This document shows, piece after piece, positions 1 to 19,314 of a DNA stretch of 47,624 nucleotides. The notes under the pieces are model-generated. The model had not been told where the DNA came from and searched no databases. It saw only the letters and a list, made by a program, of their open reading frames with translations. The stretch is from Patescibacteria group bacterium (GTDB lineage: Bacteria; Patescibacteriota; Minisyncoccia; Phycocordibacterales; UBA918). The stretch's first letter is position 1; every line of letters starts with the position of its first letter. Location: assembly GCA_019752815.1 (NCBI GenBank), contig JAIELQ010000005.1, forward strand, positions 1 to 47,624. Direction: 5' to 3'. A program made the translations under genes and the position numbers.

Positions 1-30
1 AAAGCTGACGAGTACGCATCAACGGGTGCG

Positions 31-3000
31 ATGCCAAAGAAAATCTTCTCCATTGCGCCAGCGCCAATGATTGAAGTGCCAGATTTGATTGAACCACAAC
101 GTGAATCGTTTAAGTGGTTTGTCGAGACAGCCTTAAAAGAAATCTTTACTGAGTTTTCACCGATTACTGACTACTCAGAGAAAAAGTTCGAACTTAAGTT
201 CAAGAAATACGAACTGGGTGAACCAAAGTGTACTCCAGAGTACGCCAAGGAAAACAAACTAACCTACGACGCACCACTGCGCGCGCAGGTGATTTTGAAG
301 AACAAAACTTTTGAAAGTGAAAAAGATCAGGAAATGTTCCTCGCTGACATGCCGGTCATGACCGAAAACGGAACCTTTATCATTAACGGTGTTGAACGTG
401 TGATTGTACCCCAACTCGCTCGTTCATACGGTATTTTCTTTACGGCCAATGAAGTAAAGGGACGCACAATGTTTGGTGCCAAAATTATCCCGGCTCGTGG
501 AGCCTGGGTGGAAATTGAATCTGACGTTGATGGCGTAATTTACGTTAAAATCGACCGTAAGAAGAAATTCCCAATTTCATCACTCCTTCGTGTCATGGGT
601 GTTGAAAAAGAAAAGGACATGATTGAAATGATGCAGGGGGTTGAGCGTGGCGAAGAATACATGAAGGCCACTATCGCCAAAGACCCAGCTAAATCAGTTG
701 ATGAATCATTTATCGAAATCTACAAACGTCTCCGAGACGGTGACCTTGCTACTGTTGATTCAGCGAAAGAATTTGTTCGTTCACTCTTTGCCCCAGAGCG
801 ATACGATCTCTCTGAAATTGGACGACACCACTTTAACGAACGGTACGGACGTCCAACTGATAAAAAAGCGACAGACGAACGCACTGTTTCAACCGAAGAC
901 GTTAAATTGATTTTGACTAACATTGTGGCGATGAACCATGATGTGATGGCGCTGCCTGATGATATCGACCACCTCGGGTTCCGTCGCGTCCGGTACTTTG
1001 GTGAAATGTTGCAACAACGTGTTCGTGTTGGTATGACCCGTATGAAGCGTAACATTCAAGACCGAATGTCTACGATTGAAGCCGAGACTTCACTCCCAAT
1101 GCAAATTTTAAACCCTCGACCACTCCAAGCTGCTATTAAAGAATTCTTTAGTACCAACCAGCTCTCACAATTCTCACAACAACAAAACAACCTCGCAGAA
1201 ATTGAACACTTGCGGACACTGTCCGCGCTTGGACCCGGCGGACTCACACGAGAACGTGCTGGTTTCGAAGTTCGTGACGTTCACACTAGTCACTACGGAC
1301 GGCTCTGTCCTATTCACACTCCAGAAGGACCAAACATTGGTTTGATTCTTCGTCTCTCAATGTATGCCAAGGTAAACCGTTTTGGTATTATCGAAACACC
1401 ATATGTTCGCGTAGAAAAAGGTATTGTGACTGGTGAAGTAACGTACATGAACGCTCATGAAGAAGAAAAGTACACTATTGCACATGCCGCAGTAGAACTT
1501 GATAAAAACGGAAAAATTGTTAACGACCTCGTTGAAGCCCGTAAAAAAGGTGATCCTCGAACCGTGCCTCGAAAAGATATTGAATACATGGATATTGCAA
1601 CGAACCAAGCGTTCTCGATTGCGACTTCAATGATTCCATTCCTAAACCACGACGACGCCAACCGTACTCTCATGGGTTCAAACATGCAGAAACAATCAAC
1701 ACCATGTTTGATTGCGGAAGCGCCGATTGTAGCAACCGGTGTAGAAGCCGTAGCTGCCCGCGACACAGGTCGTGTAGTGTACGCACTTGAAGCCGGAGAA
1801 GTTATTGAATGTGATGCAGAGCACATCGTCGTGAAAAACAAAGAAGGCAAGAAGAAAGAATACCCACTGACAACCCTTAAGCGAACAAACGACTTCTCTG
1901 CTTTTTACCACCGACCAGCTGTCACTGTTGGTAAAACAGTAAAGCGTGGCGATTTGCTTGCTGACACTACTTCAACTGACCAAGGACAATTGGCAGTGGG
2001 ACAAAATGCTCTCGTGGCCTTTATGTCATGGAACGGAGCTAACTACGAAGACGCGATTGTTATTTCAGAACGTCTGGTAAAGAAGAGTAAGTTTGCAAGT
2101 ATCCACATGGATGAGCTCGAAGTATCAGTTCGTGATACCAAGCTAGGTCCCGAAGTAACTTCAGCTGATATTCCAAACGTTTCAGAAATGAAACTGCGTA
2201 ATCTCGATGAAAACGGAATTATCCGTATCGGTGCCGAAGTTCGTCCGGGAGACATTTTAGTTGGTAAGGTAACACCAAAAGGTGAAACCCAACTAACACC
2301 AGAAGAACGACTCCTACGTTCAATCTTTGGAGAAAAAGCGAAGGACGTAAAGGACACCTCACTACGTCTTGAAGCTGGAAAGCGTGGGCGAGTGATTGGC
2401 GTAAAAATCTTCTCTCGTGAAAACGGCGACCAACTTGAAAGTGGCGTGATTAAACGAATCCACGTAACCGTTGCCCAAGTGCGTAACATTTCAGTGGGTG
2501 ACAAACTCGCTGGACGTCACGGTAACAAGGGAGTTATTTCTCGCATCTTGCCAGAAGAAGACATGCCGTACACCGAAGACGGACGCCCAATTGATATCTT
2601 GCTTACACCGCTTGGGGTACCTTCACGTATGAACCTTGGACAGATTCTAGAACTCCACCTCGGAATGGCTGCTAACACCCTTGGATACCAAGCGGTAGTA
2701 CCTCCATTTGCGGGAGCCAGTGAAAAACATGTTAAGGCTGAATTGGTAGCAGCTGGTTTACCAGAAGACGGTAAAATCCAACTTCGTGATGGACGTACTG
2801 GGGACCCATTTGCACAACGCACTGCCGTGGGGATGATGTATATCTTGAAACTCCACCACATGGTAGAAGACAAGATCCACATGCGTTCGATTGGACCGTA
2901 CTCTCTTATTACGCAACAACCACTCGGTGGTAAAGCGCAGGTGGGAGGTCAACGATTTGGAGAAATGGAAGTGTGGGCCTTACTCGGTTACGGTGCTGCC

Positions 3001-3228
3001 TACACCCTTCGTGAAATGCTCACCATTAAGTCAGACGATATTGTCGGACGCTCTGCTGCTTTTGACTCAATTGTGCGTGGTGAAAAAATTGGTCACCCAC
3101 ATACTCCAGCAGCCTTTAACGTATTGGTAAACCAACTACGGGGATTGGCGCTTGATGTGAAGTTAACCAAGGATGAACCAGTTCGCCCACGCCGTGATCG
3201 AGAAGAGTCGTCTTATGAGCCTGCATAA
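31..3228 (+). CDS. rpoB: DNA-directed RNA polymerase beta subunit
   Basis: Motifs GTFIINGVERV, GDKLAGRHGNKG, GQRFGEMEVW. The frame is open from base 1, so the true start could lie upstream of the window. Confidence 0.99.
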   Translation: MPKKIFSIAPAPMIEVPDLIEPQRESFKWFVETALKEIFTEFSPITDYSEKKFELKFKKYELGEPKCTPEYAKENKLTYDAPLRAQVILKNKTFESEKDQEMFLADMPVMTENGTFIINGVERVIVPQLARSYGIFFTANEVKGRTMFGAKIIPARGAWVEIESDVDGVIYVKIDRKKKFPISSLLRVMGVEKEKDMIEMMQGVERGEEYMKATIAKDPAKSVDESFIEIYKRLRDGDLATVDSAKEFVRSLFAPERYDLSEIGRHHFNERYGRPTDKKATDERTVSTEDVKLILTNIVAMNHDVMALPDDIDHLGFRRVRYFGEMLQQRVRVGMTRMKRNIQDRMSTIEAETSLPMQILNPRPLQAAIKEFFSTNQLSQFSQQQNNLAEIEHLRTLSALGPGGLTRERAGFEVRDVHTSHYGRLCPIHTPEGPNIGLILRLSMYAKVNRFGIIETPYVRVEKGIVTGEVTYMNAHEEEKYTIAHAAVELDKNGKIVNDLVEARKKGDPRTVPRKDIEYMDIATNQAFSIATSMIPFLNHDDANRTLMGSNMQKQSTPCLIAEAPIVATGVEAVAARDTGRVVYALEAGEVIECDAEHIVVKNKEGKKKEYPLTTLKRTNDFSAFYHRPAVTVGKTVKRGDLLADTTSTDQGQLAVGQNALVAFMSWNGANYEDAIVISERLVKKSKFASIHMDELEVSVRDTKLGPEVTSADIPNVSEMKLRNLDENGIIRIGAEVRPGDILVGKVTPKGETQLTPEERLLRSIFGEKAKDVKDTSLRLEAGKRGRVIGVKIFSRENGDQLESGVIKRIHVTVAQVRNISVGDKLAGRHGNKGVISRILPEEDMPYTEDGRPIDILLTPLGVPSRMNLGQILELHLGMAANTLGYQAVVPPFAGASEKHVKAELVAAGLPEDGKIQLRDGRTGDPFAQRTAVGMMYILKLHHMVEDKIHMRSIGPYSLITQQPLGGKAQVGGQRFGEMEVWALLGYGAAYTLREMLTIKSDDIVGRSAAFDSIVRGEKIGHPHTPAAFNVLVNQLRGLALDVKLTKDEPVRPRRDREESSYEPA

Positions 3229-3241
3229 TTTTTAGTAGTAT

Positions 3242-6200
3242 ATGTCAACATTTTCACCTAAGAAGCCAACTTTGACTCCAAATCAGTTTACTGAGATTGG
3301 TCTTAAACTTGCTTCGCCTGAAACAATTCTTGAATGGTCATACGGGGAAGTAACAAAACCGGAAACCATCAACTACCGAACGCAGCGCCCTGAAAAGCAC
3401 GGACTCTTCGACGAACGTATCTTTGGACCAGTAGAAGACTACGAATGTTCTTGTAAAAAATACCGCGGTATTCGATACAAAGGCATCGTCTGTGAGAAGT
3501 GTGGAGTAGAAGTTACTCGCGCTATTGTACGACGTGAACGTATGGGTCACATTGATTTGTGTGTACCGGTATCTCACATTTGGTTCTTGCGCGGAGTGCC
3601 ATCACGAATCGCGTTGATTCTTGGTATTACCGCTGCCTCAATCGAAAAAGTAATTTACTTTGCTGGGTACATTGTTACCAAAGTAAGCGAAGACGAACGA
3701 GGACGACTCCTTAAAGCACTCGATACTGAATTTAAAGCCAAACTTAAGGATCTCCAAAACGAAGATGCTAAAGAAGCACTGAAGGTGCGTATGGAGGACA
3801 TGAAGAAGGAGATTGAAAGCATCGCACAAGGAATTGTGCTTGATGAAACAACCTTCCACAAATACTCGGTGAAATACAGTACGTTGTTCGAAGCTAAAAT
3901 TGGTGCGGAATCTATTTTTGAACTCTTCAAAAATATCGACATGCCAAAACTGTTGGCTCGATTGGAAACTGAGCGCGAAACAGCTGGCGCAATGGAACGA
4001 GCGAAATTGGACAAGCGCCTTTCACTCGTACGCGGGATGATTCATGCTGGCGTTAAACCAGAATGGATGTTCCTTACTCGTATCCCAGTTATCCCACCAG
4101 CGATTCGCCCAATGGTGGCGCTTGAAGGCGGACGTCACGCGTCATCTGACCTTAACGACCTCTACCGTCGCGTGATTAACCGTAACAATCGTTTGAAAAA
4201 ACTGATTGATATTATGGCACCGGACGTAATTCTTCGTAACGAAAAGCGTATCTTGCAAGAAGCGGTTGACGCCCTTATCGACAACTCAATTCGTCATGGT
4301 AACGCAGCCTACTCAGCCATGGGTCAAGCACAACGTCGGCCACTTAAATCACTCTCTGACTACCTAAAATCAAAACAAGGATACTTCCGTCAGAACCTTC
4401 TTGGAAAGCGTGTGGACTATTCTGGACGTTCGGTAATTGTTATTGGTCCTGACTTGCAGCTTGACCAATGTGGTCTGCCGAAGCACATGGCGCTCGAACT
4501 CTTCCGTCCGTTTGTTATCGCTGAGCTTCTTAAGCAAGAACTTGCGTACAACATCCGTGGAGCAGGACGTTTGATTGAAGACGGAGTACCAGAAGTATGG
4601 GCGATTTTGGAAAACATCATCAAACATAAACACGTACTCCTTAACCGTGCGCCGACACTGCACCGTCAAGGTATCCAGGCGTTCCGTCCGGTATTGATTG
4701 AAGGTAATGCGATTCAGGTGCACCCACTCGTGTGTCGCGCGTTTAATGCCGACTTCGACGGTGACCAGATGGCTGTTCACGTACCACTCGGGGAGGAAGC
4801 ACAATTGGAAGCCCGAGAGATGATCTCAGCCAACAAGAACATCCTCAAACCAGGATCGGCTGAACCGGTTGTATCTGAAAAACTTCTTGATATGGCACTC
4901 GGTGCCTACTGGATGACCAAGGTGGTTAAGGGTGCTCTCGGTGAAGGCAAAGCATTTGCCTCACCAAACGACGCTATTAACGCCTACGACTACGGTATCA
5001 TCGACTTCCGCGCAGTGGTAAAGGTACTTGCTACTGATACAGAAAAATACAAACAATTTGAAGGTAAGGTATTTGAAACAACTGTCGGACGTCTCTTGTT
5101 CAACTCAGTGCTTCCAAGTGATCACCTCTTCATTAACGACGTGGTAGTCCAACGAATGCTCTTTGATATCATCATTGATATTATCGACGACCGTGGTCCA
5201 GAAGCCGTGCCGGCAATTGTCGACAAACTTAAAAAACTTGGATTCAAATACGCTACACAATCTGGAACAACCTGGGGTATTGATGAAGTAAAAGTGCCAG
5301 TGCAAAAAGCTGCCATTGTTGAAGCGTCACGTGAAGAAGAACGAAAGGTATTTGCCTTCTACGATGAAGGACTTATCTCTCGTGATGAACGTCGCCGCAT
5401 GATTGTGTCTATCTGGCACCGCGCGAAAACTGAAATTGAAAAAGTACTGCCAGAAACACTGGATGAAACTGGATCAGCCTACGAAATGTGGAAGTCTGGT
5501 GCTCGTGGATCTCTTGGTCAAATTGCCCAGATGGCCGGTATGAAGGGTCTTATCGTTAATACCCGAGGTGAGACATTGGAATTCCCAATTCTTTCTTCAA
5601 TGAAGGAAGGTATGACACCGATTGAGTACTTCAACACTACTCACGGTTCTCGTAAGGGTCTTGCTGACACCGCGTTGCAGACTGCGAAGGCAGGGTACCT
5701 TACTCGACGTCTCTTCGTAGTGGCGCAAGACGCGATTGTAACGGAAATTGATTGTAAAACTAAAGATGGTACCAAGATTGGTCGCATCAGTGCCTCTGGT
5801 ATTGAAATTGCCTTCAGTAAAGCGATCAAGGGACGTATCCTCTCACAAGACGCAGTGGACAGTAAGGGCAATGTTATCTTCCCTAAAGGTCACTTGATGT
5901 CACGACGGGACGCGATTGCGGTTGAAGGTTCAACCTGTTCAATGGTTGAAGTACGTTCACCAATGACCTGTAAAACACTTCGCGGTGTGTGTCAGAAGTG
6001 TTACGGAATTGACCTCACAACGAACCAGCTCATCGACATCGGTGAAGCGGTCGGAACGGTAGCAGCGCAAGCGATTGGTGAACCGGGAACTCAGCTGACG
6101 ATGAACACCAAACACGCCGGAGGTACTGCCTCAGCCGGTGGAGACGTAACCTCAGGTCTTCCTCGTGTAGAAGAAGTATTTGAAAAACGTCAACCAAAAG

Positions 6201-6925
6201 TGCCTGCCATCGTCAGTAAGTGTGAAGGTCTCGTCGTAGACATTCGTACCGAAGGACGTGAAAAGGTAATTGTGGTTTCTCCAGACATGGGTGCCAAAGG
6301 TGCTCCAAAGAAAAAAGATAACATTGAATACCCAGTTCACTACCGCCGTCAGGTGATTGTGAACAAGGGAGAGACTGTTATCTCAGGACAACTCCTCACT
6401 GATGGTTCAGCCTTGCTTCCAGAACTCTTCAAGTTCGGTGGTCAAGAAGTAGCTCAGGAATACATTATTTCTGAAGTAAACAAGATTTACGAACTCCAAG
6501 GGGTAACGATTGCGCGCAAGCACATTGAACTTATCGTGAAACAAATGATGTCTCGCGTGAAAGTAAACAGTACTGGTGACAGTCACTTTACCAACGGTGA
6601 CGTAGTTGAAGAATGGATCTTTATCGAAGCCAACAACAAGTTGAAAGCCGAAGGTAAAGAAGTGGCCAAGGCCGACCGTTTGATTCTCGGTATTACCGAA
6701 ACATCTCTCTCACGAAAGAGTTTCCTTTCAGCAGCGTCTTTCCAAAACACTACTCGAGTACTTATCAATGCTGCCGTTCGTGGTAGTGAAGATAACCTTG
6801 CCGGTTTGATGGAGAACGTTATTATCGGAAAACTTATTCCAGCTGGATCAGGATTTAAGGGAAGTAAGAAGTATGAGATGATGCAGCAGCTGCAGGGAGG
6901 AGCCACCCGCATCGACCGCGAGTAG
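3242..6925 (+). CDS. rpoC: DNA-directed RNA polymerase beta' subunit
   Basis: Catalytic NADFDGD, N-terminal Zn finger (CSC...CEKC), follows rpoB. Confidence 0.99.
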
Positions 6926-6926
6926 G

Positions 6927-7050
6927 AGAAATTCCACTACACACTCATCTGCGTTGTTGCGACTGCGAAGTTAGACGTTCACCGTACAAGGAGTACGGCT
7001 CACGCCCAACTTCTTGCGCGCCTAGCATCTGAGCACGTATTGAAATTCCT
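6927..7050 (-). repeat. Palindromic element family A, copy 1 (after rpoC stop)
   Basis: Plus strand CATCTGCGTTGTTGC...TCA-CCGTAC-N5-GTACGG-CTCA...CGCCTAGCATCT within an imperfect long inverted repeat. Pairs best on the minus strand (G-T wobbles). Confidence 0.85.
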
Positions 7051-7086
7051 TTAATTGACGAAAGAGAGTAGTCGACAATTTAGAGA

Positions 7087-7123
7087 AAACAAAAACCGCC
7101 TTCGGCGGTTTTTGTTTGTTTTT
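7087..7123. terminator. Intrinsic terminator of rpoBC (bidirectional form)
   Basis: AAACAAAAACCGCC-TTC-GGCGGTTTTTGTTT hairpin with A and T tails. Confidence 0.85.
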
Positions 7124-7161
7124 AAAAAAGAAAAACCCGCACCATGTTACTGAGCGGGTTT
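7124..7161 (-). terminator. Terminator of the minus-strand orphan gene; near-duplicate at 10329-10368
   Basis: AAACCCGC...GCGGGTTT stem followed on the minus strand by TTCTTTTTT. Confidence 0.7.
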
Positions 7162-7182
7162 CGCTTAGTTTGGTGCGGGGGA

Positions 7183-7752
7183 TCAGTGCTTCTTGATGTC
7201 CGTGTCTTGCTCGACCGCCTGCTTCTTCGTCTCGTTCTGGGCCTCAGGGCTGAACAGAAACTCGACATCAAGACGGGGACGACCGTTGCCGAGATCGACA
7301 GCGACCGTGTACCGCTTTGTGACATCTTCGTATTTGATCCGTTGCCCATCGTCTTCGCCAAAACCAAAGCTCGATGGTGGAACTCGGTACGTGTGACCGA
7401 CATTGGTCGAGATTTCGATGGTTTTGCCATCTACTTCGGGGAAGATGTGCTTGATGATGGCGCCTACCACGAATGGCGAGATGTCTGCCCAGTCGAATGC
7501 ATCGCCGATCCCCACTGAAATCTCATACTGCGAGAGTGAACCGGAGCTGACACCTGGAATTTGCTCCAGCGCCTTGGATAGGGCGAGGGCAACAGCACCA
7601 GGTTTCTTTTTCTCGTCGAGCGACGAAAAAAAGTTGTCTTGGCCAAAGCCATAGTGTCGCACAGGGCACACGTCGCGAACGACGTGATATGAGCGACGGG
7701 TCGGGTTCGGATGCTGAACCATCTTGATGTGTGCTTTGATGTCGATGTCCAC
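7183..7752 (-). CDS. Hypothetical protein with Nfu/NifU N-terminal (scaffold)-like domain
   Basis: HPNP...LSKALEQIPGV...YEISVGIGDAFDWADI resembles Nfu_N. Start reassigned to GTG 7752, which has SD AAGGAG (ORF track start 7791). Confidence 0.6.
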   Translation of the reverse strand: MDIDIKAHIKMVQHPNPTRRSYHVVRDVCPVRHYGFGQDNFFSSLDEKKKPGAVALALSKALEQIPGVSSGSLSQYEISVGIGDAFDWADISPFVVGAIIKHIFPEVDGKTIEISTNVGHTYRVPPSSFGFGEDDGQRIKYEDVTKRYTVAVDLGNGRPRLDVEFLFSPEAQNETKKQAVEQDTDIKKH

Positions 7753-7796
7753 AGGCAATCTCCTTCTGTTGTATAGTGAACTAATGTTCATATAGT

Positions 7797-7824
7797 ATTA
7801 TACACAAAAAATAAAATAAGTCAA
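7797..7824 (-). promoter_or_regulatory. sigma70-type promoter
   Basis: TTGACT-N16-TATAAT on the minus strand. Confidence 0.7.
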
Positions 7825-7845
7825 TAGCTTACGATACTCCCAGCA

Positions 7846-7978
7846 ATCAAGTATACTAGTGGCAATCATGGCATCAGGGGACGCGGTACAGCAGATTAAG
7901 GATCGGCTCAATATTATTGATGTGATTTCACCGTATGCGGAGCTAGTAAATGAGCCCCACTTTGTTTCTTGCAACTGA
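7846..7978 (+). pseudogene. Duplicated dnaG 5' fragment with its -10 box (36-aa ORF 7868-7978)
   Basis: 7846-7944 matches 8514-8612 with 6 mismatches in 99 nt. Encodes MASGDAVQQIKDRLNIIDVISPYAEL, then diverges and stops. Confidence 0.9.
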
Positions 7979-8016
7979 TGATTTTATTGTTGGGCGGGTG
8001 GTAGAATTGGAGTAGT

Positions 8017-8406
8017 ATGAAAGACTTTAAACACTGGGTTGGCGTTAAGGAAAAACTCGATAGTTTACTTCATAAACCACCATTTGTGAGTGAGGGTGAT
8101 ATGTGGTGGGCGAGTATTGGTGAAAATGTCGGTTCGGAAATCGGTGGCAAAAGTGACCTGCACTCCAGACCGGTTATTATTTTGCGTAAGTTGTCCCATG
8201 GATTTTACTTTGTGATACCAACAACTACCAAAACCAAAGACGGTAGCTGGTATTTTTCCTTCACCCATGCTGAAAAAGTAACGACTGCCTGCCTTCACCA
8301 ATCAAGAGCAATCGACTATCGCCGACTGTCCTCAAAGTTAGGAACGTTAGCCGAACAAGATTTTGCAGATTTAAAGAGTGCGTTTAGAAATCTGTATAAA
8401 CTCTAA
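8017..8406 (+). CDS. PemK/MazF-family toxin (endoribonuclease), orphan
   Basis: GDMWWASIGENVGSEIGGK...RPVIIL...VIPTTT...QSRAIDYRRL, a typical MazF-fold signature. Confidence 0.88.
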   Translation: MKDFKHWVGVKEKLDSLLHKPPFVSEGDMWWASIGENVGSEIGGKSDLHSRPVIILRKLSHGFYFVIPTTTKTKDGSWYFSFTHAEKVTTACLHQSRAIDYRRLSSKLGTLAEQDFADLKSAFRNLYKL

Positions 8407-8457
8407 ACAATATTCCCCGCCTCTTGCGAGGCGGGGCCGCGGGAAAACCCCGAATGT
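8407..8457 (-). ncRNA. Candidate small antisense RNA convergent with the PemK toxin gene
   Basis: Lies downstream of a near-consensus minus-strand promoter. 9-bp GC stem with a GCAA (GNRA) loop on the minus strand (8415-8436) plus a small CGGG/CCCG hairpin. No ORF. Ends are inferred. Confidence 0.5.
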
Positions 8458-8463
8458 AAATAA

Positions 8464-8492
8464 AGTATAGCCAAATGGATAAAATATGTCAA
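8464..8492 (-). promoter_or_regulatory. Near-consensus sigma70 promoter firing antisense toward the toxin 3' end
   Basis: TTGACA (8492-8487), 17-nt spacer, TATACT (8469-8464). Confidence 0.8.
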
Positions 8493-8535
8493 TATTTTAC
8501 CTAAAATTGCTCCATCAGGTATACTACTAGCAATT

Positions 8536-10302
8536 ATGGCATCAGGGGACGCGGTTCAGCAGATTAAAGATCGGCTCAATATTATTGATGTGATTTCACC
8601 GTATGCGGAGCTGACAAAGTCGGGGCGGCATTTTGTGGCGCGGTGTCCATTCCATTCGGAAAAGTCACCATCATTCCATGTGTCACCAGAACGCGGCACC
8701 TATCACTGTTTTGGCTGTGGGGTGGGGGGAGATATTTTTTCGTTTATTCAAGCAATTGATGGAGTGGAATTCAAAGATGCACTCAAGACCCTCGCCGAAC
8801 GTGCGGGTGTTGAACTGGTGCCAGAAAACCCACAAAAGAAAACCGAACGCGATGAGTTGGTGGCCGTCATTGAAGCCGCTACAAGCTACTATGAGAATCA
8901 GCTACCTAACATGGTAGATGCGACAGCGTATTTAGAGCGTCGTGGTGTCACTAAAGAAACAATTAAAAAGTGGCGCATCGGGTATGCTCCGGGTCCGCCG
9001 CTTGCTGGCTGGCGCGAGCTCAAGACCCATTTGATTAACGAGAAGTTTTTACCGGGCACGATGTTAAAGGCCGGCCTAATTAAAAGTGCCGAAGGTGGCA
9101 AAGAACCATTTGATACATTTCGCGACCGTATTATGTTTCCACTGCGTGACCAGGCGGGGCGGGTAGTGGGTTTCTCGGGAAGGATATTGGCAAAAGATAC
9201 TGATGCGCCGAAATACGTGAATTCACCGGAAACTGAGCTCTACCACAAATCAGAATTACTGTACGGGTACGATATGGCGAAACACGGTATTCGTAATTTA
9301 GGTTTTTGGATTATTGTCGAAGGGCAGTTTGATGTGGTGATGAGTCACCAAGCAGGGTATACCAATACCGTCGCTGTTTCAGGGACCGCATTGACACTCC
9401 ATCATGTGCAGTTGCTGGAACGACTTTCAACCAAGGTCGTGCTCGCGCTTGATTCAGACAAAGCCGGAATTGCCGCCATGAAAAAATCTGCTGACCTCAT
9501 GCTACGGCGGGGGATTGATGTGAAAGTCGCTGCTATGCCTGATGGCGCCGATCCGGCTGATATGATTTTGGCTGACCCTAAATCATTTAAAACTGCTGTG
9601 GGACATGCGGTCCATATCATCGAATTTTTACTCGCGCATTTACGCAAAGAAAATGCCGATGACCGAGCGTATAAATTAAAAGCCACGGCCGAGGTGATGC
9701 CGTTTATCACCCTCATTCCTAATATGATTGACCGCGATCATTTTGAAGGCGTGACTGCAACAGCGCTTGGCACAACCAAAGACGCTGTACATGCTGAGGT
9801 GTTGCGGTTGCTTGAGGAACAAAAGCGCCAACCGGTGCAATACAAAGAAGTAACTGTAGAAAAAACACCTACCCCACAAAACGAAACTATGACCGCAATT
9901 TTACGCAAAGAGGGTACCCTCCATTATCTACTGGCTGCGCTGACTATTGTGCCTGAACCAGTGCGAGAAGTCTTGGAGCGAGAAATTGCGGTAATTGTGA
10001 GTCCCGAGGTATTAGAGAGTGAGCGCATAAATGGCAGCGCCCACATATCGAAACTGACCTTCCAAATCGAGCAATTTATCGAAAAAAGTAGTTACCGATT
10101 GCAAATTGAAGAGTTCACCCACAAGCTCAACCAATTGCACAAATTAACGGTAGAAGGGAAGTTGGCCCAAGAAAAAGCCCAATTGAAGGAGATTGAAAGT
10201 TCTGGACAAGGGGACACCATGCCGGTGTTGCTTCGAGTAAATGAGCTACGGCGACAACTCCAAGCTAATGAGTATCAAGTCTCAATATTTCCAAAGCTCT
10301 AA
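8536..10302 (+). CDS. dnaG: DNA primase
   Basis: CHC2 Zn finger (CPFH...CFGC), KYVNSPET, TOPRIM VEGQFDV and DSD. Confidence 0.98.
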   Translation: MASGDAVQQIKDRLNIIDVISPYAELTKSGRHFVARCPFHSEKSPSFHVSPERGTYHCFGCGVGGDIFSFIQAIDGVEFKDALKTLAERAGVELVPENPQKKTERDELVAVIEAATSYYENQLPNMVDATAYLERRGVTKETIKKWRIGYAPGPPLAGWRELKTHLINEKFLPGTMLKAGLIKSAEGGKEPFDTFRDRIMFPLRDQAGRVVGFSGRILAKDTDAPKYVNSPETELYHKSELLYGYDMAKHGIRNLGFWIIVEGQFDVVMSHQAGYTNTVAVSGTALTLHHVQLLERLSTKVVLALDSDKAGIAAMKKSADLMLRRGIDVKVAAMPDGADPADMILADPKSFKTAVGHAVHIIEFLLAHLRKENADDRAYKLKATAEVMPFITLIPNMIDRDHFEGVTATALGTTKDAVHAEVLRLLEEQKRQPVQYKEVTVEKTPTPQNETMTAILRKEGTLHYLLAALTIVPEPVREVLEREIAVIVSPEVLESERINGSAHISKLTFQIEQFIEKSSYRLQIEEFTHKLNQLHKLTVEGKLAQEKAQLKEIESSGQGDTMPVLLRVNELRRQLQANEYQVSIFPKL

Positions 10303-10328
10303 TTGTTTCTTTCTTAGTTAACTTTTTT

Positions 10329-10368
10329 AAAAAAGAAAATCCCGTAGCATGTTGCTGAGCGGGATTTT
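10329..10368 (-). terminator. Terminator of the minus-strand orphan gene
   Basis: AAAATCCCG...CGGGATTTT with a T tail on the minus strand. Same design and loop as 7124-7161. Confidence 0.7.
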
Positions 10369-10399
10369 AACAGGAAAACGGAGCGTCACTCGACGTCAC

Positions 10400-10738
10400 T
10401 TATTTCACAAAATTTTCTTCGATAAATTGGGTCATGCTGGAAAGAGCTGCGCTGTCTTTGTGAGGATGTTTTTGCTCAAGAACAACGTAATCAAAGGAAA
10501 TGACTATACTGAAATACTCACGTACTTCTCCTATGACTTCTTCGATCAACAGTACCATATAGGGGAGTGGCCTCTTTTTGGCGCCTTTCTTGTTGACATA
10601 AATGTGATGAAGTTGATTCAGACGCACGCCCTCACCAGCAAGTACCTCTTTGAGGCGAAGAGTCTCTTCACCCTTAGGTCCAAGTGCCTTCGCGCGACGT
10701 AAGGCATAATGGATGCTTTTAGTGGTCATCATTGGCAT
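10400..10738 (-). CDS. Hypothetical protein (orphan between dnaG and rpoD)
   Basis: 112-aa ORF with SD GGAG, an upstream TTGACT box and a downstream terminator. Confidence 0.65.
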   Translation of the reverse strand: MPMMTTKSIHYALRRAKALGPKGEETLRLKEVLAGEGVRLNQLHHIYVNKKGAKKRPLPYMVLLIEEVIGEVREYFSIVISFDYVVLEQKHPHKDSAALSSMTQFIEENFVK

Positions 10739-10891
10739 GGTGCTTTTCTCCAGCTCTAGTCGTTTACTGAGGCGTTTCTGTTAATGTTTATATAATAATG
10801 TAATACATTAGTCAATGAGTAGTATTTTTAGGGAAAACTACCCCGTAAACACTGGACATTTTCAAGTTTTTCTGTATAGTATCAGGTACCT

Positions 10892-12316
10892 ATGGCAGTC
10901 AAGAAAAAAGCCAATTCAAGCAGTAAAAAAGCGGTCAAAACCGTTAAAAAAGTCACAAAAAAACCGGTAGCAAAAAAGACTCCAAAGAAAGTCGTTGCAC
11001 CAAAAAAGATGGTAGTTAAAAAACCAGCGGCCAAGAAGGTAGTTAAAAAAGTTACTAAAAAAGCGACTCCTCACAAGGCAGTGGCTAAAAAAGTCGTATC
11101 AAAAAAACCAGCCAAGCAACCTGTAAAAAAAGTAGCGGTTAAGCAACCAGTTAAAAAAGTTGTCACCAAAACCAAATCAGCACCGGTAGTCAAAGAGGCT
11201 CCAAAAAAAGTTGTTCCAGAAGTTAAACTTAAATTAACCAAAAGTGAAAAGGTGTTGGAGCTTAAAGCAGCTGAACTCATGAAGCTTGGTCGTGAACGTG
11301 GGTATGTTACCTATGACGAACTTTTACGCTCATTTCCTGAAATTGAAAAAGACGTGATGTTCCTCGATGACCTGTACGAACGCTTTAGTGTGGCCGGTAT
11401 CGATGTGTTGAAGTCAGGTGGTATGTTGGGTGATGATCCGGCTGAAGAATTATTGGCTCAGAAAAATGCCTTCAAGCGTAACGACAGTAGTTACGACTCG
11501 ATTCAAATGTACCTCCGTGAAATCGGACAGTACCCACTCTTAAATGCACATGAAGAACGAGTGCTCGCCAAACGTATCGTTGATGGTGATGATGAAGCCC
11601 GCAACCTCCTTGCTCGGGCTAACCTCCGTCTCGTAGTTTCCATTGCGAAAAAATATGTTGGTCGTTCCCCTGACCTGACACTCCTCGACCTCATTCAAGA
11701 AGGGAACCTTGGACTCTTCAAAGCCGTTGATAAATTCGATTTTACCAAAGGCTTTAAATTTTCAACCTACGCTACCTGGTGGATTCGCCAAGCGATTACT
11801 CGGGCGCTCGCTGACCAGTCACGAACGATTCGTATTCCAGTGCACATGGTTGAAACGATGGCTAAATATAAACAGGTGTCACGCCGATTATCACAAGACC
11901 TTGGTCGTGATCCAATGCCAGAGGAAATTGCGACCGAAATGGGTGTTGAGGTAGAGAAAATTTACCAAATCGAAAAAATTAGTCAGGACACCATTTCGCT
12001 CGAACTACCAATTGGTGACGAAGACGATAACTCACGCTTATCTGACTTTATCGCTGACGATAAAATTACCGCACCCGACCAGGAAGTATCACACAGTATC
12101 TTAACTGATCAGATTACCGAGATTCTCGATACACTGTCTGAAAAAGAACGGAAAATTCTTGAGATGCGTCACGGGCTACTTGATGGTACGTATCATACGC
12201 TCGAAGAAGTAGGGAAGGAATTTGGCGTAACACGAGAACGTATTCGACAGATTGAGGCGAAGGCTCTCGAGAAGATACGTCAACACGAAAAAGCGAGACG
12301 TCTCAAGTCATACTAA
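10892..12316 (+). CDS. rpoD: Primary RNA polymerase sigma factor with Lys/Ala/Val/Pro-rich N-terminal extension
   Basis: [44 protein letters not shown]. Confidence 0.97.
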
Positions 12317-12440
12317 GAGGAGCTTCCAAAACCCACGCATCTGCGGCGTTGTCACTTTCACTCAAGTCCTCACCGTACAAAAAGTACGGCTCGAACTTTC
12401 GCTCGGTGACACCTTGCATCTACCCACGTTTTGAAACCTC
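12317..12440 (-). repeat. Palindromic element family A, copy 2 (after rpoD stop)
   Basis: CATCTGCGGCGTTG...TCA-CCGTAC-AAAAA-GTACGG-CTC...CCTTGCATCT. Confidence 0.85.
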
Positions 12441-12463
12441 ATCGGAGACGGTGTAGTTCAGAA

Positions 12464-12494
12464 AAACAAAAACCGCCTCACGGGGCGGTTTTTG
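12464..12494. terminator. Intrinsic terminator of rpoD
   Basis: CAAAAACCGCC...GGCGGTTTTTG, same stem as the rpoC terminator. Confidence 0.8.
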
Positions 12495-12560
12495 ATTAAT
12501 TGTAAAAAAGAAAACCCCGGCGAACCGCTAGGGTTTCCGGAGTTGCTGAACCTGAAAAGA

Positions 12561-12755
12561 TCAGGTGAGCGTGGGGTAGTGCTTGTCGAGATCGGCGTCG
12601 ATTTCGGCGAGCAGAGCCTGTTCGGTTTCGGGACTGATGGGCGGCAGATTTGCCACGTCAGTCTCAAGAGTTTCTTCGTTCGCTTCGAACCGGTCGAACA
12701 AGTCACCCATCACGGTTGCGATTGCGTCAGAGGTTTCGGAATCAATCGTCTTCAT
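12561..12755 (-). CDS. Small acidic hypothetical protein (orphan)
   Basis: 64 aa. SD GGAG and promoter TTGACT-N17-TACTAT with TG extension. Confidence 0.65.
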   Translation of the reverse strand: MKTIDSETSDAIATVMGDLFDRFEANEETLETDVANLPPISPETEQALLAEIDADLDKHYPTLT

Positions 12756-12913
12756 TTTCTTGCTCCAAGTTGGTTATGCACTTTTACTATAGTAGCACAA
12801 ATAATTATAAAAGTCAATACAGTGTTATTGTAGATAAATTAATAGGTTAGAGCTATTCACTAAAAGAGTAATAAAGTGGTCGGTATTAGCTTGGGGTTTG
12901 TTACAATATCAAC

Positions 12914-13690
12914 ATGACGAACAAGTGGTTCTTTTTGTTGTTTATTTCTATCTATACGTTATGTACGGCACTGATTTTGGTGTGGGCCGATGCTTCGTTT
13001 TTGATCGTAACCGCACTGCTGTTTGGAGCACCGATTTTTGTGCTTTGGAATCGACTGCAGCTGAAATCCCATCTTGTGCCCTTGGTGGCCACCTTTACCT
13101 TGCTTACGACCGCCATTATTCAAATTTACGCTTATAAGAGTGGTTTGTGGTACGAACTGTCACCATTATCGTTTGCTGTGTTTGGCGGGGCACCCCTTGA
13201 AACCTACATCTTTTCGGTGCTTCATATTTTGTATTTGATACTCTTGTATGAGTACTTTTTTGACGACGGTACGAGCACAAAACGAACTAGTATTTCTCCG
13301 CGCGGACTAGGAATACTGGGTGTTATGTACGCATTGATTCTCGGTATTATTTACACTGACTCGACGATATTGGTGTCGTACCCGTTTGCGTTTTTGTTGG
13401 CGTTCATGAGTTCATTGTTTGCGGTGATGATACTAGTGCGCAAAAGTATGCCGCCACTAGCGTTGTTTAAAAAAGCGGGGTTGTTTGCTGTTGTCACGCT
13501 GCCACTGTCATTAATTTACGAATGGATACTCCTCGAAAACGGCATTCGCTTGTTTGCGAACGTAAACGAATATATTGGATATTTTGAATGGGACTATCAG
13601 GTGATCCCGGTTGAGCAGTTCCTCTTACTACTGATTGTACCGTTTGGGTTGGTGATGTTGTATGAAATGTATATTGACGACAGTCATTAG
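12914..13690 (+). CDS. Polytopic membrane protein, lycopene-cyclase-domain-like (two internal repeats)
   Basis: About 8 hydrophobic segments. Repeated GLWY...GAPLETY and GIRLF...VIPVEQF motifs. Confidence 0.55.
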   Translation: MTNKWFFLLFISIYTLCTALILVWADASFLIVTALLFGAPIFVLWNRLQLKSHLVPLVATFTLLTTAIIQIYAYKSGLWYELSPLSFAVFGGAPLETYIFSVLHILYLILLYEYFFDDGTSTKRTSISPRGLGILGVMYALILGIIYTDSTILVSYPFAFLLAFMSSLFAVMILVRKSMPPLALFKKAGLFAVVTLPLSLIYEWILLENGIRLFANVNEYIGYFEWDYQVIPVEQFLLLLIVPFGLVMLYEMYIDDSH

Positions 13691-13958
13691 AACTCCCAAA
13701 ACTGGTGAATGAAGAAACGAGTGAGAAATGCCAGGGCATTTCGCAAGAGGTTGCCAGCTATTTTGTAAAAATAGCGACAACCCGTACAGCTTCTGTAAGA
13801 AGTAGCGATTATTCTGAATTTATGTTGCTGGAAAATAAGGAGCTTGCGACTATATTTTCTGTATGCAGAGCCGAGATTTTTCCTCCTAAGGAAAATCGCT
13901 GGACCGCATTTCGTTGCTTTCTCACCCCTAGCACTGCACTCAGTTTTGGAAATTCTAA
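13687..13958. mobile_element. Composite MITE-like palindromic element (~270 bp)
   Basis: Terminal inverted repeats TTAGAACTCCCAAAACTG / CAGTTTTGGAAATTCTAA (16 of 18 match). Shares internal modules with the elements at 21101-21164 and 29496-29572. Confidence 0.65.
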
Positions 13959-13982
13959 AAAATTAAGAGGTCCGAGTACTGG

Positions 13983-16079
13983 TTATTTGTGACTACTGGC
14001 AGCGAGTTCGCCCTTGAGGATGATGGATAGTTTCGGGGTAATCAATTCGTTTTCAGTAACGTGTTCAAGTACGTGTTCGGCTACCTTGTGTACTGTTTGT
14101 TGGGCTAATTTTTGGGAAAGGGCATCAATAATCTGAACATTGTTATTGTAGATGGCCTGCATTTTTTGCTGGGATTGATTACGGAATTCTTCGTATAGTG
14201 ATTTGGTGTGATTAATTGCTTCGCTGGTAAATATACTGGCGTGATTGTTGCCTGAAAACGACTCTAATTCTTTGAGGACCTTGCGGGCAATAATCGTTTG
14301 CGCGCGGTAATACATGTAGTTATTTTGAATGTTTGTGAACACTGTCTCTTGACCGAGATATTTTTTAAAGAATGTAGCCATTCGCTCGAATACGTCTTTA
14401 CTGTCTGTATGAATCGACATATTTGAGTTTAGCTCACCGGCTGAGATAGACTCGTGTTGAAGTTGTAATTTACCGGTGAGTCGCTTGAATACCGCTTCGT
14501 TAACTTCGTCGTGATGATACAGTTCTTTGAGGTGACGTTTTTCAATACCAATGGCAAATAATCGTAATACTTGCACTGCAATCGCGTCTTTGGCACTCTT
14601 AGACAAGCTGTCTACCATGGCACATGATTCAGTAAATAATTTGGTATGCTCTAATTGCAGTGTGTGGGCCAGGTCTGCCTGAATGTAGCCGCGTTCTTTA
14701 TAGATTTCAAGCTTGTCCGACACTTCTTTGTGCATGAGTGCACGGGCCTCTTGGTACTCAATTTGTTCAATATCAGTCAGTCCATCAAGTTTAAGCTTGC
14801 GCATAAACCACTGCATAGTTGGAGCTTTGATAAAGAGTGTGGCTGCAATACATCCAATCGTGAGCGATAACAAGAAATCACGCACACTCATATCGAGCGC
14901 CCAATTCGTGAGAGTGAAATCAGCCGGGATGAGGAGTACCATTGTTACCGCGAGTGCGCCACGTAGTGATCCCCATGACAGAAGGTGTTGCCAGGAAAGG
15001 GGGACTCGTTCCTTGGCAGGGACGGTACGGTTAAAGATACCTACGAGCGGGTAAATAGAGATTGCCCGAGCCAAAGCCACTATAATGATAGTACAAAGTA
15101 CTACAAAAAACATTTGTGAGTTAAGTGTTGGGCCAGAAACAAACAGTACACCAATCAAAATAAAAATCAGTGAATTAGCAAAAAATGCTAATTGACCCCA
15201 GAGTTTTTCGACGAACTCTTCCGCGCGCGGATGAATTTTTGGTCGTCCGTAGTTGCCCAAGAGGAGGGCTGCAACTGTCGTCGCAATAATCGGTGAGAGC
15301 GGGAGGTGAGTGCCGGCGATTGCGAGGTGGTGTGACAAGATTTCTGCTAGAATAAAGGTAATGTGCGCGAGTACAACAGTCAGCGTAATGCTGGCAGTTT
15401 CATTTTCCCGGGTTAAACCAATGAGGTAGGAAAATACAACTCCACATAAAATTCCAAATAACACTCCGCCAATCATCATGGAACTAAAACTAATCACTCC
15501 GGCAATAACGGTGTCGTAGCCGTGGAAACCAAACTGGGCAATTTCGAGCAATACGAGGAAGAGCGCTACTGCAGTGGCATCATTAAACAGACTTTCACCC
15601 TCAAAAATAAGTGACAAACGGTTGGGTGCACCAAACTCTTTAAAAAGTGCAAGCACGGCTACTGGGTCGGTAGCTGAAATTAAAGCACCGAAAATTAACG
15701 GAATGATAAACGGCACTGACATTCCAAAAAATTGCAATAGGTAGAACAATGGTATCGCTATACAAATGGTAGAAATGAGCAATCCTACAATTGAGAGGAT
15801 TAAGACAATTGGCGTTTCCTCAACGAGTCGTCGTACATTAATATTGTAGGCTGATTCAAAAATCAGTGTTGGCAGCAAGAGAAAGAACAAAAGTTCTGGT
15901 GTGAGCTTGAATTCAGCAAAAAAGTGGAAACTCGGGATAGTAGCCAGCAAACCTAATCCCATCCCAATTATTACCAAAAAAACCGTATGCGGTAGCTTAA
16001 ACCGTTTTGCCCAGAAAATGGCGAGACTGGAGATTCCCAACATTGAAAAGATTGCGAGCGTGGCATTGGCGGTAAGCAT
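13983..16079 (-). CDS. CPA1-family Na+/H+ antiporter (NhaP-like) with cytoplasmic C-terminal domain
   Basis: LLPTLIFESA, ISATDPVAV, EGESLFND, LRGAL. Start set to ATG 16079. Confidence 0.92.
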   Translation of the reverse strand: MLTANATLAIFSMLGISSLAIFWAKRFKLPHTVFLVIIGMGLGLLATIPSFHFFAEFKLTPELLFFLLLPTLIFESAYNINVRRLVEETPIVLILSIVGLLISTICIAIPLFYLLQFFGMSVPFIIPLIFGALISATDPVAVLALFKEFGAPNRLSLIFEGESLFNDATAVALFLVLLEIAQFGFHGYDTVIAGVISFSSMMIGGVLFGILCGVVFSYLIGLTRENETASITLTVVLAHITFILAEILSHHLAIAGTHLPLSPIIATTVAALLLGNYGRPKIHPRAEEFVEKLWGQLAFFANSLIFILIGVLFVSGPTLNSQMFFVVLCTIIIVALARAISIYPLVGIFNRTVPAKERVPLSWQHLLSWGSLRGALAVTMVLLIPADFTLTNWALDMSVRDFLLSLTIGCIAATLFIKAPTMQWFMRKLKLDGLTDIEQIEYQEARALMHKEVSDKLEIYKERGYIQADLAHTLQLEHTKLFTESCAMVDSLSKSAKDAIAVQVLRLFAIGIEKRHLKELYHHDEVNEAVFKRLTGKLQLQHESISAGELNSNMSIHTDSKDVFERMATFFKKYLGQETVFTNIQNNYMYYRAQTIIARKVLKELESFSGNNHASIFTSEAINHTKSLYEEFRNQSQQKMQAIYNNNVQIIDALSQKLAQQTVHKVAEHVLEHVTENELITPKLSIILKGELAASSHK

Positions 16080-16253
16080 AAATAGATTACGAATTACATA
16101 ATAGGGTGCTACTATACTCCTGTTATATTTGCCTGGCAACCTCAGTCTATAAAAGTACAGATTCTAACCTAGATTTTGCCTGAGTCAGTAATTTGGAATC
16201 CTTTGGCTGCTGAGGGTGTTACGAGATAGGGCCTTAGTGGTATACTTCTCGAT

Positions 16254-19200: not shown

Positions 19201-19259
19201 AAAAAGATTGTGAAGCCTGTCGATTTTGGGAAGTACTACATGCAAAAAACAAACAGTAA
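16254..19259 (+). CDS. UvrD/PcrA-family helicase fused to a C-terminal PD-(D/E)XK nuclease
   Basis: AGPGTGKT, VDEHQD, QSIYRFQGA, YVAVTRAK. C-terminal CP...IDKI...IDYKTG...C-x4-C-x2-C. Confidence 0.93.
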   Translation: MSLLQEKKQLLAKFTTAYNALNTAQKEAVDTIEGPVMVIAGPGTGKTQILTLRIANILKETQSNPENVLALTFTNSGVRAMRERLKTYIGDDAYRVGIYTFHSFAEHILKKFSSYFPSREFASVITELEKTKIIEHILLQHDFQKIVSAYDRFSSLTQIVGAVNDIKQEGYTPAEFLELIPAWEKTQMESETMFYKRATGKFKVGDIKPTEKTKVEDRVAKVHELATVFSAYQQELTKRNLYDFSDMILTVLGELEKNENLKYDLQEQFQYVLVDEHQDTNDGQNKLIEFLTDAEHLNGAPNLFVVGDEKQSIYRFQGASDQTFSYFKNHYRDVKVVKLEQNYRSTTQVLDGAHNLIVHSLPDATELHGNLAVDYPVSVKEFSDYKFELLFLVRDIEMKLKAGVPADEIAIIYRSNKHLLEIKNLFQQFNIPYTVLSRDTLLDDPAIIMLVTCIKVIANPYDNESLARLLFADFLGLDSLMAANTLQSYRLISRDKNNSQALIDYIKTDEEYQAVIEMITHLHTYAANHLFSETFKEVLHRSGFLTWVLQKTDSRSALRKVEVLFNQVRQLAELSPMYGINDFVEFVMASLKYNLKIEVAATTVGKGVQCMTAHSSKGLEFESVYLMNTTRSNWEKSRGFSGITLPLNRYAGELDDERRLFYVAVTRAKKHLVITSSSQDWGGKSQEPSQFISELGVDSSEASLTESFEIENEAELVRFFSNESLKDSVFTVDYLVSRFKEENLSVTALNNYIDCPIKYLFRNLIQLPDVYTPSLRYGNTIHQALENFFIESKQAKSILPRERLLNEYQAAIDVSGFYDAEYERFLLKGKQALGMYYDYYHHNWSVKIDIEEYIRSSIEVHGTSLTLSGKIDKIEYLDEEGVGSVRVIDYKTGKPFSKKSSKSQKQGLERQIRFYHLLLQGYKNGAITIHEAVLDFVEPIDGKEFEQKTLQVTEADIIELKGEISTMTAEILSGEFLTKGCGKKDCEACRFWEVLHAKNKQ

Positions 19260-19314
19260 ACTGCGACACTGTAAACTGTCGGGACCTTCCCGATAGATAA
19301 GTACATTTTGAGAA

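Follow-up and report, generated by a model that had tools for sequence, protein, structure and literature searches.

A MazF/PemK-family toxin gene and its conserved convergent small RNA: a candidate toxin/RNA-antitoxin module in Patescibacteria

In a 47,624-nucleotide (nt) stretch of DNA from a Patescibacteria group bacterium (contig JAIELQ010000005.1 of assembly GCA_019752815.1; hereafter the window), a gene for a 129-residue endoribonuclease toxin of the MazF/PemK family (8017-8406, plus strand) is followed on the opposite strand by a small convergent gene for a structured RNA. Across the Patescibacteria-type genomes sampled the toxin and RNA genes are co-inherited, and the structure of the RNA covaries. 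The locus is best explained as a compact toxin/RNA-antitoxin module that has been inserted immediately upstream of dnaG; it measures ~570 base pairs (bp), comprises two genes, each with a promoter, and lacks helper genes. A first-pass annotation of the window had proposed that a minus-strand small RNA is the partner of this MazF-fold toxin; conservation, covariation, strand signals and the lack of a protein antitoxin all support that proposal, and the small RNA is probably an antitoxin, by whichever route it acts.

The RNA gene starts with a sigma-70-type promoter (8464-8492, minus strand), in which the -35 box TTGACA (8492-8487) and the -10 box TATACT (8469-8464) are separated by a 17-nt spacer. 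The promoter scores 11/12 and ties with one at 7824..7797 as the best in positions 1-20000 of the window; as the same scan returned 32 promoter-like sites where 30.7 were expected from shuffled sequence, i.e. a total at chance level, the weight of the minus-strand promoter comes from its conservation. From its constant offset from the -10 box in 40 loci we infer that transcription starts near 8457, 6-7 nt past the -10 box, which would give the RNA a single-stranded 5' leader (UACAU at 8454-8458, minus strand, the beginning of UACAUUC...); the family consensus of this leader is (U/C)ACAAAU, and its position relative to the -10 box is kept in the same 40 loci. Folding, alignments and covariation then place two hairpins on the minus strand: hairpin 2 (8437-8453), with the core GGG-UUUU-CCC, the counterpart of GGC-UUCG-GCC in most family members, and hairpin 1 (8415-8436), a 9-bp GC stem with a GCAA (GNRA) loop, which in the window appears also to act as an intrinsic terminator. 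The terminator-like site ends in a U-rich tail, AAUAUUGUUUA (8404-8414, minus strand), and as this tail enters the complement of the toxin stop codon (8404-8406) it is the probable 3' end of the RNA.

The promoter, the small hairpin and the GCAA-capped stem all lie where the first-pass annotation had put them. It had also described the U tract after the stem as weak and had considered read-through into the toxin gene. The stem is indeed present downstream, and the idea of a leaky stop has been replaced: in the terminator scan the stem and the tail after it, AATATTGTTT, qualify as terminator-like, and do so only on the minus strand, and same-genus relatives carry a better U tail, e.g. AAUAUUUUUA. 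Most likely, the GC stem is the RNA's own terminator, yielding an RNA of ~50 nt, and not a leaky stop before a long antisense transcript.

We examined 42 loci carrying the toxin gene (the window, 12 and 29 others, with one duplicate place dropped), whose proteins are 27-62% identical in amino-acid sequence to the window protein. The first-pass annotation had staked its proposal in advance on conservation of the promoter and the motif downstream of toxin homologs, and this is what was found: a promoter-leader-two-hairpin unit lies downstream of the toxin, on the opposite strand, in 41 of the 42 loci, and its stems covary. Forty of these loci align from the -35 box through the -10 box, leader, hairpin 2 and hairpin 1; in the forty-first (L037) the toxin is interrupted by a stop codon, and the RNA unit is present once the true end of the gene is used. 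The 82-nt alignment of the 40 loci is invariant or nearly so in no columns but those of TTGA in the -35 box and TA...T in the -10 box. TTGAC is found in 32 of the 40 and TAnnnT at a spacing of 16-18 nt in 36, the spacing being 17 nt in 20 of them. Two broken same-genus copies of the toxin (in G023 and G074) retain the RNA unit, with compensatory changes in its stems. The toxin itself is patchily distributed: among the other genomes of the genus 4 of 36 have it, among relatives 12 of 61 (a figure that includes the window's own genome), and an even phylum sample yields it in 55 of 401 genomes, with up to 8 matches per genome. The family comprises at least 6976 clusters at E<=1e-5 (8000 candidates scored), and where its members are named they are PemK/MazF proteins from metagenome-assembled genomes (MAGs) of Patescibacteria type.

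Several analyses were used to determine whether the conserved unit folds as an RNA. Minimum-free-energy folds have both hairpins in place in 34 of the 40 loci, as against 5.3% of 4000 dinucleotide shuffles (median z -2.83). RNAalifold found compensatory changes at all nine pairs in an alignment of 10 sequences, and hairpin 1 shows such changes even among same-genus copies. In a covariance-model alignment of 22 sequences (A7), 91.0% of cells were paired compared with 66.1% after shuffling (0/500), and all nine pairs were compensatory, four of four in helix 1 (hairpin 2) and all five modelled pairs in helices 2-3 (hairpin 1); the covariation score was 0.637 against 0.235 for shuffled alignments (0/500), with slid controls at <=0.117. 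A larger alignment (A9) contained 55 hits, 52 of them distinct and 47 from loci found by RNA pattern. Here 96.2% of cells were paired, hairpin 1 was 93.7% paired with five of five pairs compensatory, and the covariation score was 0.551 against 0.167 (0/500; slid controls <=0.143), hairpin 2 being partly fixed in this alignment by the search pattern. Over both stems, compensatory pairs numbered 9/9 and 8/9 in the two covariance-model alignments. MAFFT alone did not align hairpin 1 structurally.

The strand on which the element is read could also be determined. In the window the loop of the 8415-8436 stem is TTGC on the plus strand and GCAA on the minus strand, and the first-pass argument that this is a GNRA tetraloop on the minus strand only generalises to the family: of 77 RNA-strand loops 19 are GNRA and 19 are UNCG, i.e. 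38 in all, as against 0 of 67 loops on the toxin strand. The balance of G·U against A·C pairs, 21 to 0 in A9 and 13 to 4 in A7, likewise favours the RNA strand, and the conserved promoter points the same way as the loop and wobble signals; G·U counts from single-sequence folds (18 versus 20) were uninformative on strand. These signals fit the minus strand only. In the window itself the minus-strand fold of 8395-8460 has an energy of -27.7 kcal/mol (z -3.28, with 0 of 200 shuffles equally stable), and the plus strand gives z -3.45.

Conservation was then analysed from the RNA. The exact leader and hairpin pattern occurs at 7 places in the 401 phylum genomes, compared with 2 for the reversed control; four of the seven places are 50-70 nt from an intact convergent toxin, one adjoins a toxin gene that is truncated (contig C13, same genome as the window) and two stand alone. 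When one genome of each species was scanned with a promoter, leader and hairpin pattern, at least 120 loci were returned, almost all titled as Patescibacteria lineages; 80 of the loci were analysed (81 motif hits; 79 with enough flanking DNA). An intact convergent toxin accompanied 61 of the 81 hits and a partial or broken one 10 (two of these limited by contig ends); 8 hits had no toxin, three of them in MAGs labelled as other phyla, which may be chance matches, and 2 lay in too little DNA at contig ends. The RNA gene is thus kept beside broken toxins in G023, in G074, on C13 of the window's own genome, at L037 and at the 10 loci found from the RNA. The only toxin without the RNA, at L065, is itself altered, with PPSS in place of the family's P-L-T-T and a replaced C-terminus. 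As the RNA persists after loss of the toxin and a toxin without the RNA is nearly absent, this is the pattern expected of an antitoxin.

Individual remnants were also noted. In the window's own genome, at G000:C13:5575-5843 (locus L068, ~726-1053), an intact three-hairpin RNA gene with its promoter adjoins a toxin cut to its first ~63 residues. Lone small-RNA genes with no recognisable adjoining toxin were seen at L066 (G273:C4), L067 (G432:C7), L069, L071, L138 and L140. Lone RNA genes that have promoter, leader, hairpins and terminator resemble orphan antitoxins.

MazF-type toxins are expected to adjoin a gene for a protein antitoxin in type II systems, and the first-pass annotation had seen no such open reading frame (ORF) beside the toxin. 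Our searches agree. The only ORFs upstream of the window toxin are a 39-residue 5' fragment of dnaG (7859-7978) and a 21-residue ORF (7950-8015), neither of which has a Pfam match at E<=1, and comparison with three homolog loci of the genus shows no conservation of the DNA upstream. Across the toxin family the upstream neighbours are unrelated genes at varying distances; no conserved ORF was found either up- or downstream of the toxin homologs in the loci examined, and none of 26 small ORFs upstream of homologs has an antitoxin-type Pfam domain. A search of the window's own genome, which is 99.97% complete, gave no match to MazE/AbrB (PF04014). The same genome has one intact PemK-family gene in addition to the truncated remnant on contig C13.

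The assignment of the toxin to MazF/PemK, made in the first pass, is borne out by profile and structure searches. The Pfam family PemK_toxin (PF02452) matches ORF 8017-8406 with E 4.3e-9 and 37 bits (cutoff 23.1), and a whole-genome search with this profile recovers the gene at 36.8 bits, again above the cutoff. With a subfamily profile the nearest solved chains by sequence are those of Bacillus subtilis EndoA/MazF (4mdx and 1ne8, E 4-5e-9). PADLOC gave no match and NCBIfam only a weak MazF match (E 5.6e-4), far under its cutoff. An AlphaFold2 model of the protein (predicted local distance difference score, pLDDT, 84.1; predicted template-modelling score, pTM, 0.78) was compared with the PDB by Foldseek; the matches listed were MazF-type toxin chains only (MazF, YdcE, MoxT and a B. 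cereus mRNA interferase), with probability 1.00 and target-normalised template-modelling scores of 0.67-0.78. According to this model, the fold of the window toxin is a true MazF/Kid-type fold.

Across 67 toxin sequences the residues K2, W7, K11, G35, N37, G39, E41, G44, R51, P52, P68, Q95 and R103 are invariant. R51, the arginine of the RPV motif, aligns exactly with its MazF counterpart, and T70 is nearly invariant and falls one alignment position off EndoA Thr48; we take Arg25 and Thr48 to be the catalytic residues of B. subtilis MazF. The alignment and the AlphaFold2 model also indicate a subfamily-specific N-terminal helix (residues 4-16) that carries the invariant K2, W7 and K11. Solved MazF chains are without this helix, and their alignments with the window protein start near residue 23.

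A promoter for the toxin gene can be predicted from the sequence as an extended -10 element, TGgTAGAAT (7999-8007, plus strand). As it sits 9 nt before the ATG, the toxin mRNA would have almost no leader. Of 41 family members, 10 have an extended -10 element at a distance of 4-9 nt upstream of the start codon, compared with 0.5 expected, and a Shine-Dalgarno-like motif is found upstream of the toxin start in 1 of the 41. This suggests that the toxin mRNA is nearly leaderless and comes from a weak promoter opposed by the strong promoter of the RNA.

The RNA gene comes in two architectures, which differ in how it meets the end of the toxin gene. In the window type, a U tract comes after hairpin 1 and ends at the toxin stop codon, so that the predicted RNA is ~50 nt long. 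The other type is the commoner: between hairpin 1 and a long third hairpin it has an A-rich stretch, and its RNA would measure 90-110 nt. The distance from leader to toxin stop is 39-62 nt in 58 of 61 loci, and the stop codon falls within the third hairpin in 52 of 58 loci found from the RNA, 33 of these with a U-rich 3' end. (With an earlier criterion, a U run after the stem, terminators were called in only 14 loci of the 61, including 9 at the toxin stop; this criterion was given up because in RNAfold structures the U tract is paired to the A tract.) Where individual third hairpins were inspected, both of their strands show the A-tract/stem/U-tract layout of a two-way terminator, and such a hairpin would serve as terminator for both genes. 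If it does, the toxin mRNA should end before reaching the leader and the two hairpins. The leader and two hairpins are nevertheless the most conserved parts of the RNA. In the commoner variant they are not part of the overlap, and comparison of the two variants shows a changing 3' overlap next to a constant 5' module. In the window there is no plus-strand terminator between the toxin stop and the RNA gene, the stem lacking a T run after it when read on that strand. Elsewhere in the window, the DNA between rpoC and a gene for a 202-residue protein contains a hairpin (7087-7117) whose 14-bp stem is a perfect palindrome and which is bordered on each side by A and T tracts; as this is a textbook two-way terminator, the organism uses canonical intrinsic terminators.

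Public sequencing runs were searched for transcripts of the locus. Four runs were compared, by contigs only; the best run held 0.36 of the words and the runs labelled as RNA 0.07-0.14. None of the contigs covers 8397-8560, so that they are evidence neither way on expression. One 197-nt contig, from a run guessed to be RNA, lies within the toxin gene at 8172-8367.

How would such an RNA keep the toxin in check? The route we prefer, tentatively, is that the small RNA binds the toxin directly, as in type III systems. The toxin gene would be expressed from its own extended -10 promoter with almost no 5' leader, and the near-consensus minus-strand promoter would produce an RNA of ~50 nt (from ~8457 to 8405) made up of the leader, the tetraloop hairpin and the GNRA-capped GC hairpin, the last doubling as terminator. 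Made in excess, this RNA may keep the toxin harmless: its 5' module (the leader with both hairpins) would bind to the dimeric toxin, blocking the toxin's RNA groove, the N-terminal helix with invariant K2, W7 and K11 being a possible RNA-docking surface, and the 3' overlap with the toxin mRNA would be secondary. The features of the protein that speak for direct binding are the true MazF fold predicted for it, the conserved RPV arginine and the added basic/aromatic N-terminal helix. On the side of the RNA, the strong conservation and constancy of the 5' module, which in the commoner variant would lie beyond the end of the toxin mRNA, speak for it too. A broader form of the proposal is possible, and we put it forward with greater reserve: that MazF toxins neutralised by direct binding of a single-copy, two-hairpin convergent RNA constitute a widespread toxin-antitoxin class of the Candidate Phyla Radiation (CPR), type III-like yet without repeats or processing, in which the helix carrying K2, W7 and K11 would be a docking adaptor.

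Type III systems (ToxIN, AbiQ/antiQ, CptIN and TenpIN) pair an endoribonuclease of a fold related to MazF/Kid with a non-coding RNA antitoxin, and their known antitoxin RNAs are tandem repeats that lie upstream of the toxin, are co-transcribed with it and are processed by it. By analogy, the partnering of an endoribonuclease of MazF-related fold with an RNA would be shared by the window system, and an excess of RNA would be expected here too. The window RNA differs in being single-copy and two-hairpin, without repeats, and in having its own promoter in a downstream, convergent gene; the window toxin is a true member of the Pfam PemK/MazF family and not of the ToxN/AbiQ type.

A number of observations weigh against direct binding, or against the structural evidence on which it draws. 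Apart from a 99-nt duplication of dnaG sequence, no tandem or direct repeats were found in 7000-9500. The C(UUCG)G hairpin and the GNRA-capped GC stem are the most stable of small hairpins, and could be conserved for stability or termination and not for recognition. At L005, tandem paralogous modules share almost identical 5' modules while their toxins differ, each being ~37-41% identical to the window protein, which argues against a specific, insulated RNA-protein interface. The two-hairpin minimum-free-energy test was failed by 6 of the 40 loci, and covariance model R1 recognised 22 of its 44 source sequences at E<=0.1. The covariance-model alignments were fitted to the structure, so that the pairing and wobble counts given above for A7 and A9 are inflated. 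Fold energy barely differs by strand, the RNA strand being the more stable in 24 of 40 loci.

The generic, near-identical 5' modules of tandem paralogs would fit a system whose specificity resides in an antisense part, and antisense action of type I kind is the alternative that survives best, though we consider it somewhat unlikely. The RNA would pair with the 3' end of the toxin mRNA, the duplex leading to cleavage and 3'-to-5' decay, and the 5' hairpins would only stabilise the RNA; the antisense part would be the whole RNA in the window, if toxin transcription reads through, and the shared terminator hairpin elsewhere. The two genes are indeed convergent, the tail or terminator of the RNA reaches or spans the toxin stop codon, and in the window, where no plus-strand terminator intervenes, a toxin read-through transcript would be fully complementary to the RNA. 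There is also precedent in B. subtilis, where bsrG/SR4 (PMC3834814) and yonT/SR6 (PMC5848175) are likewise described with a convergent RNA gene, a terminator region overlapping the 3' end of the toxin gene and shared terminator hairpins. The first contact of SR4 with bsrG is described there as made through the terminator loop of SR4 (PMC3834814), and the yonT toxin, whose antitoxin RNA is SR6, as a peptide of 58 residues (PMC5848175). Those two toxins are small peptides, and type I toxins are as a rule small and hydrophobic, whereas the window toxin is a 129-residue soluble enzyme of MazF fold. Further, all that overlaps in the commoner variant is a terminator hairpin of great stability, such as any convergent gene pair would have, and the parts of the RNA conserved throughout the phylum fall outside the predicted antisense overlap, a further difference from type I. 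Nor did we find cognate-specific pairing of the RNA with the 5' end of the toxin mRNA: the energy was -12.5 kcal/mol for cognate and -12.2 kcal/mol for non-cognate pairs, with the cognate at a median rank of 18 of 40.

It is unlikely, in our estimation, that the RNA is real and linked to the toxin without being its antitoxin. In that case it would be an insulator or transcription-interference unit that shields a downstream essential gene, or would have other targets, and the MazF-like protein would be checked in some other way or be non-toxic. The modules do often lie directly upstream of housekeeping genes, e.g. dnaG and pheS, and in Myxococcus xanthus MazF-mx, like the window toxin, is encoded by a mazF gene without a neighbouring mazE and is neutralised, according to the report (PMC4803016), by MrpC. 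That surrogate antitoxin is described there as an unlinked protein and a transcription factor, whereas the window RNA gene is linked to the toxin gene and co-inherited with it. An insulator would need no conserved near-consensus promoter, leader and two covarying hairpins; moreover, the persistence of the RNA after toxin loss and the rarity of toxins without it (1 of 42, and that one altered) would be left unexplained. The window's own genome is without a MazE-type gene, and the toxin retains the catalytic-site arginine of MazF.

Two direct copies of a 99-nt sequence flank the toxin and RNA genes and are identical at 93 of 99 positions (94%). Copy A (7846-7944, plus strand) contains the dnaG promoter (-10 box TATACT, 7852-7857) and the first 27 dnaG codons, continues as the 39-residue fragment ORF mentioned above, and keeps the native intergenic spacer on its left. 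Copy B (8514-8612, plus strand) belongs to the intact dnaG gene (8536-10302; identified by its domains), of which it holds the promoter and the 5' end, and it marks where the inserted module ends on the right. G069, which is the closest relative and has no toxin module, carries the dnaG upstream region once, and this region is 92% identical to 7808-7941 of the window; copy A matches it at 91 of 98 positions and copy B at 90 of 98. A flanking duplication of the 5' end of the downstream gene is also present at L005 (pheS, 92 nt, 99%) and L003 (42 nt), and no flanking repeat was found at the other 39 of the 42 toxin loci. In a public metagenome run, a 507-nt contig spans the junction of dnaG fragment and toxin (7851-8262) with 7 differences, and related strains thus carry the same insertion.

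Such flanking duplications of target DNA, in 3 of 42 loci, together with the mobile and patchy distribution of the module (55 of 401 phylum genomes and 4 of 36 other genomes of the genus), are what might be expected if the sequence downstream of the toxin were a DNA-level element, for instance a site for recombination or attachment, or one end of a mobile cassette, and not an RNA gene. We regard this as very improbable. A DNA hairpin has no strand preference, and here the GNRA/UUCG loops (38 versus 0) and the G·U pairs (34 versus 4) fit one strand; the promoter stands at a fixed distance from the hairpins; and the ORF listings of the DNA surrounding the loci brought no recombinase gene to notice, though no systematic search for one was made. 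Weaker still, to the point of being almost certainly wrong, is the idea that duplication of the 5' end of dnaG carried along the promoter of the divergent 202-residue gene, that the minus-strand promoter is no more than the relic of this, and that the hairpin is an unrelated terminator: 15 of the 16 nt surrounding the -35 boxes of the two promoters agree (7818-7833 versus 8480-8495) and BLAST extends the flanking repeat to 7811-7944 / 8479-8612 (87%), but the stretch between the -35 box and the dnaG -10 box differs from the native spacer of copy A and of G069, and the idea was rejected as promoter and hairpins follow toxin homologs at unrelated sites without any dnaG repeat.

The neighbouring genes have features of their own. 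The 202-residue ORF (7183-7791, minus strand) is divergent from dnaG and has a promoter at 7824..7797 (TTGACT-16-TATAAT, 11/12); it belongs to no significant Pfam, NCBIfam or PADLOC family, its only match being a sub-threshold one to Nfu_N. The -10 box of dnaG, TATACT, lies only 10 nt before the ATG, with no obvious Shine-Dalgarno sequence (8520-8538 and, in copy A, 7852-7870), and dnaG too may be translated from a nearly leaderless mRNA.

We compared the arrangement with known RNA families and toxin-antitoxin systems. In a search of 7000-9500 of the window against Rfam 15 at E<=1 the only overlap was a sub-threshold minus-strand match to PsrR1 (E 0.13, 24.1 bits against a gathering score of 42), and in 15 homolog loci at E<=0.1 the matches were to rRNA, tRNA and one LOOT RNA only, none of them on the element. 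The LOOT RNA (RF03000, 74 bits; L046:2153-2270) is ~0.7 kb from a toxin/RNA module, probably by coincidence. The pemK RNA motif (RF02913, an accession taken from a script in bioRxiv 10.1101/2021.11.03.467129) is also a structured RNA named for an association with pemK, and differs in having no match to the RNA of the window family, the two having been compared by covariance-model search only (E<=0.1, 15 homolog loci). Our searches of the open-access literature brought up no MazF-family toxin described as having its own convergent small RNA, which, together with the lack of an Rfam 15 match, agrees with the first-pass impression that the arrangement had not been described.

Type II systems of the MazEF/PemIK kind (e.g. 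B. subtilis EndoA-EndoAI, PDB 4me7) share with the window locus the toxin family, the fold and the RPV arginine. They differ in their protein antitoxin, as the loci examined here have no adjoining one and the window's genome has no MazE-type gene, and in their toxin, as that of the window has the extra N-terminal helix and the invariant K2, W7 and K11. The antisense RNA aMEF, like the window RNA, is found at a locus containing mazF, but that locus keeps MazE, and the report (PMC8749433) describes the RNA as stimulating mazEF expression, thus fine-tuning the system and not replacing its antitoxin.

Solo type II toxins have long been a puzzle (Makarova et al.), and a remark of 2009 already raised the idea that solo toxins might use small-RNA antitoxins. 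The locus described here offers a concrete case that can be tested at scale. Our results support the view that it represents a candidate RNA-antitoxin variant built on a type II toxin family and widespread in CPR bacteria. If confirmed, it would make this toxin the first member of the MazF family to have a dedicated RNA antitoxin, and the boundaries between types I, II and III would be blurred. It would also provide annotation pipelines with a simple RNA marker by which complete systems, and not orphan toxins, could be recognised. A class of MazF toxins controlled by direct RNA binding, if it exists, would explain the large set of 'solo' MazF proteins, which amounts to at least 6976 protein clusters.

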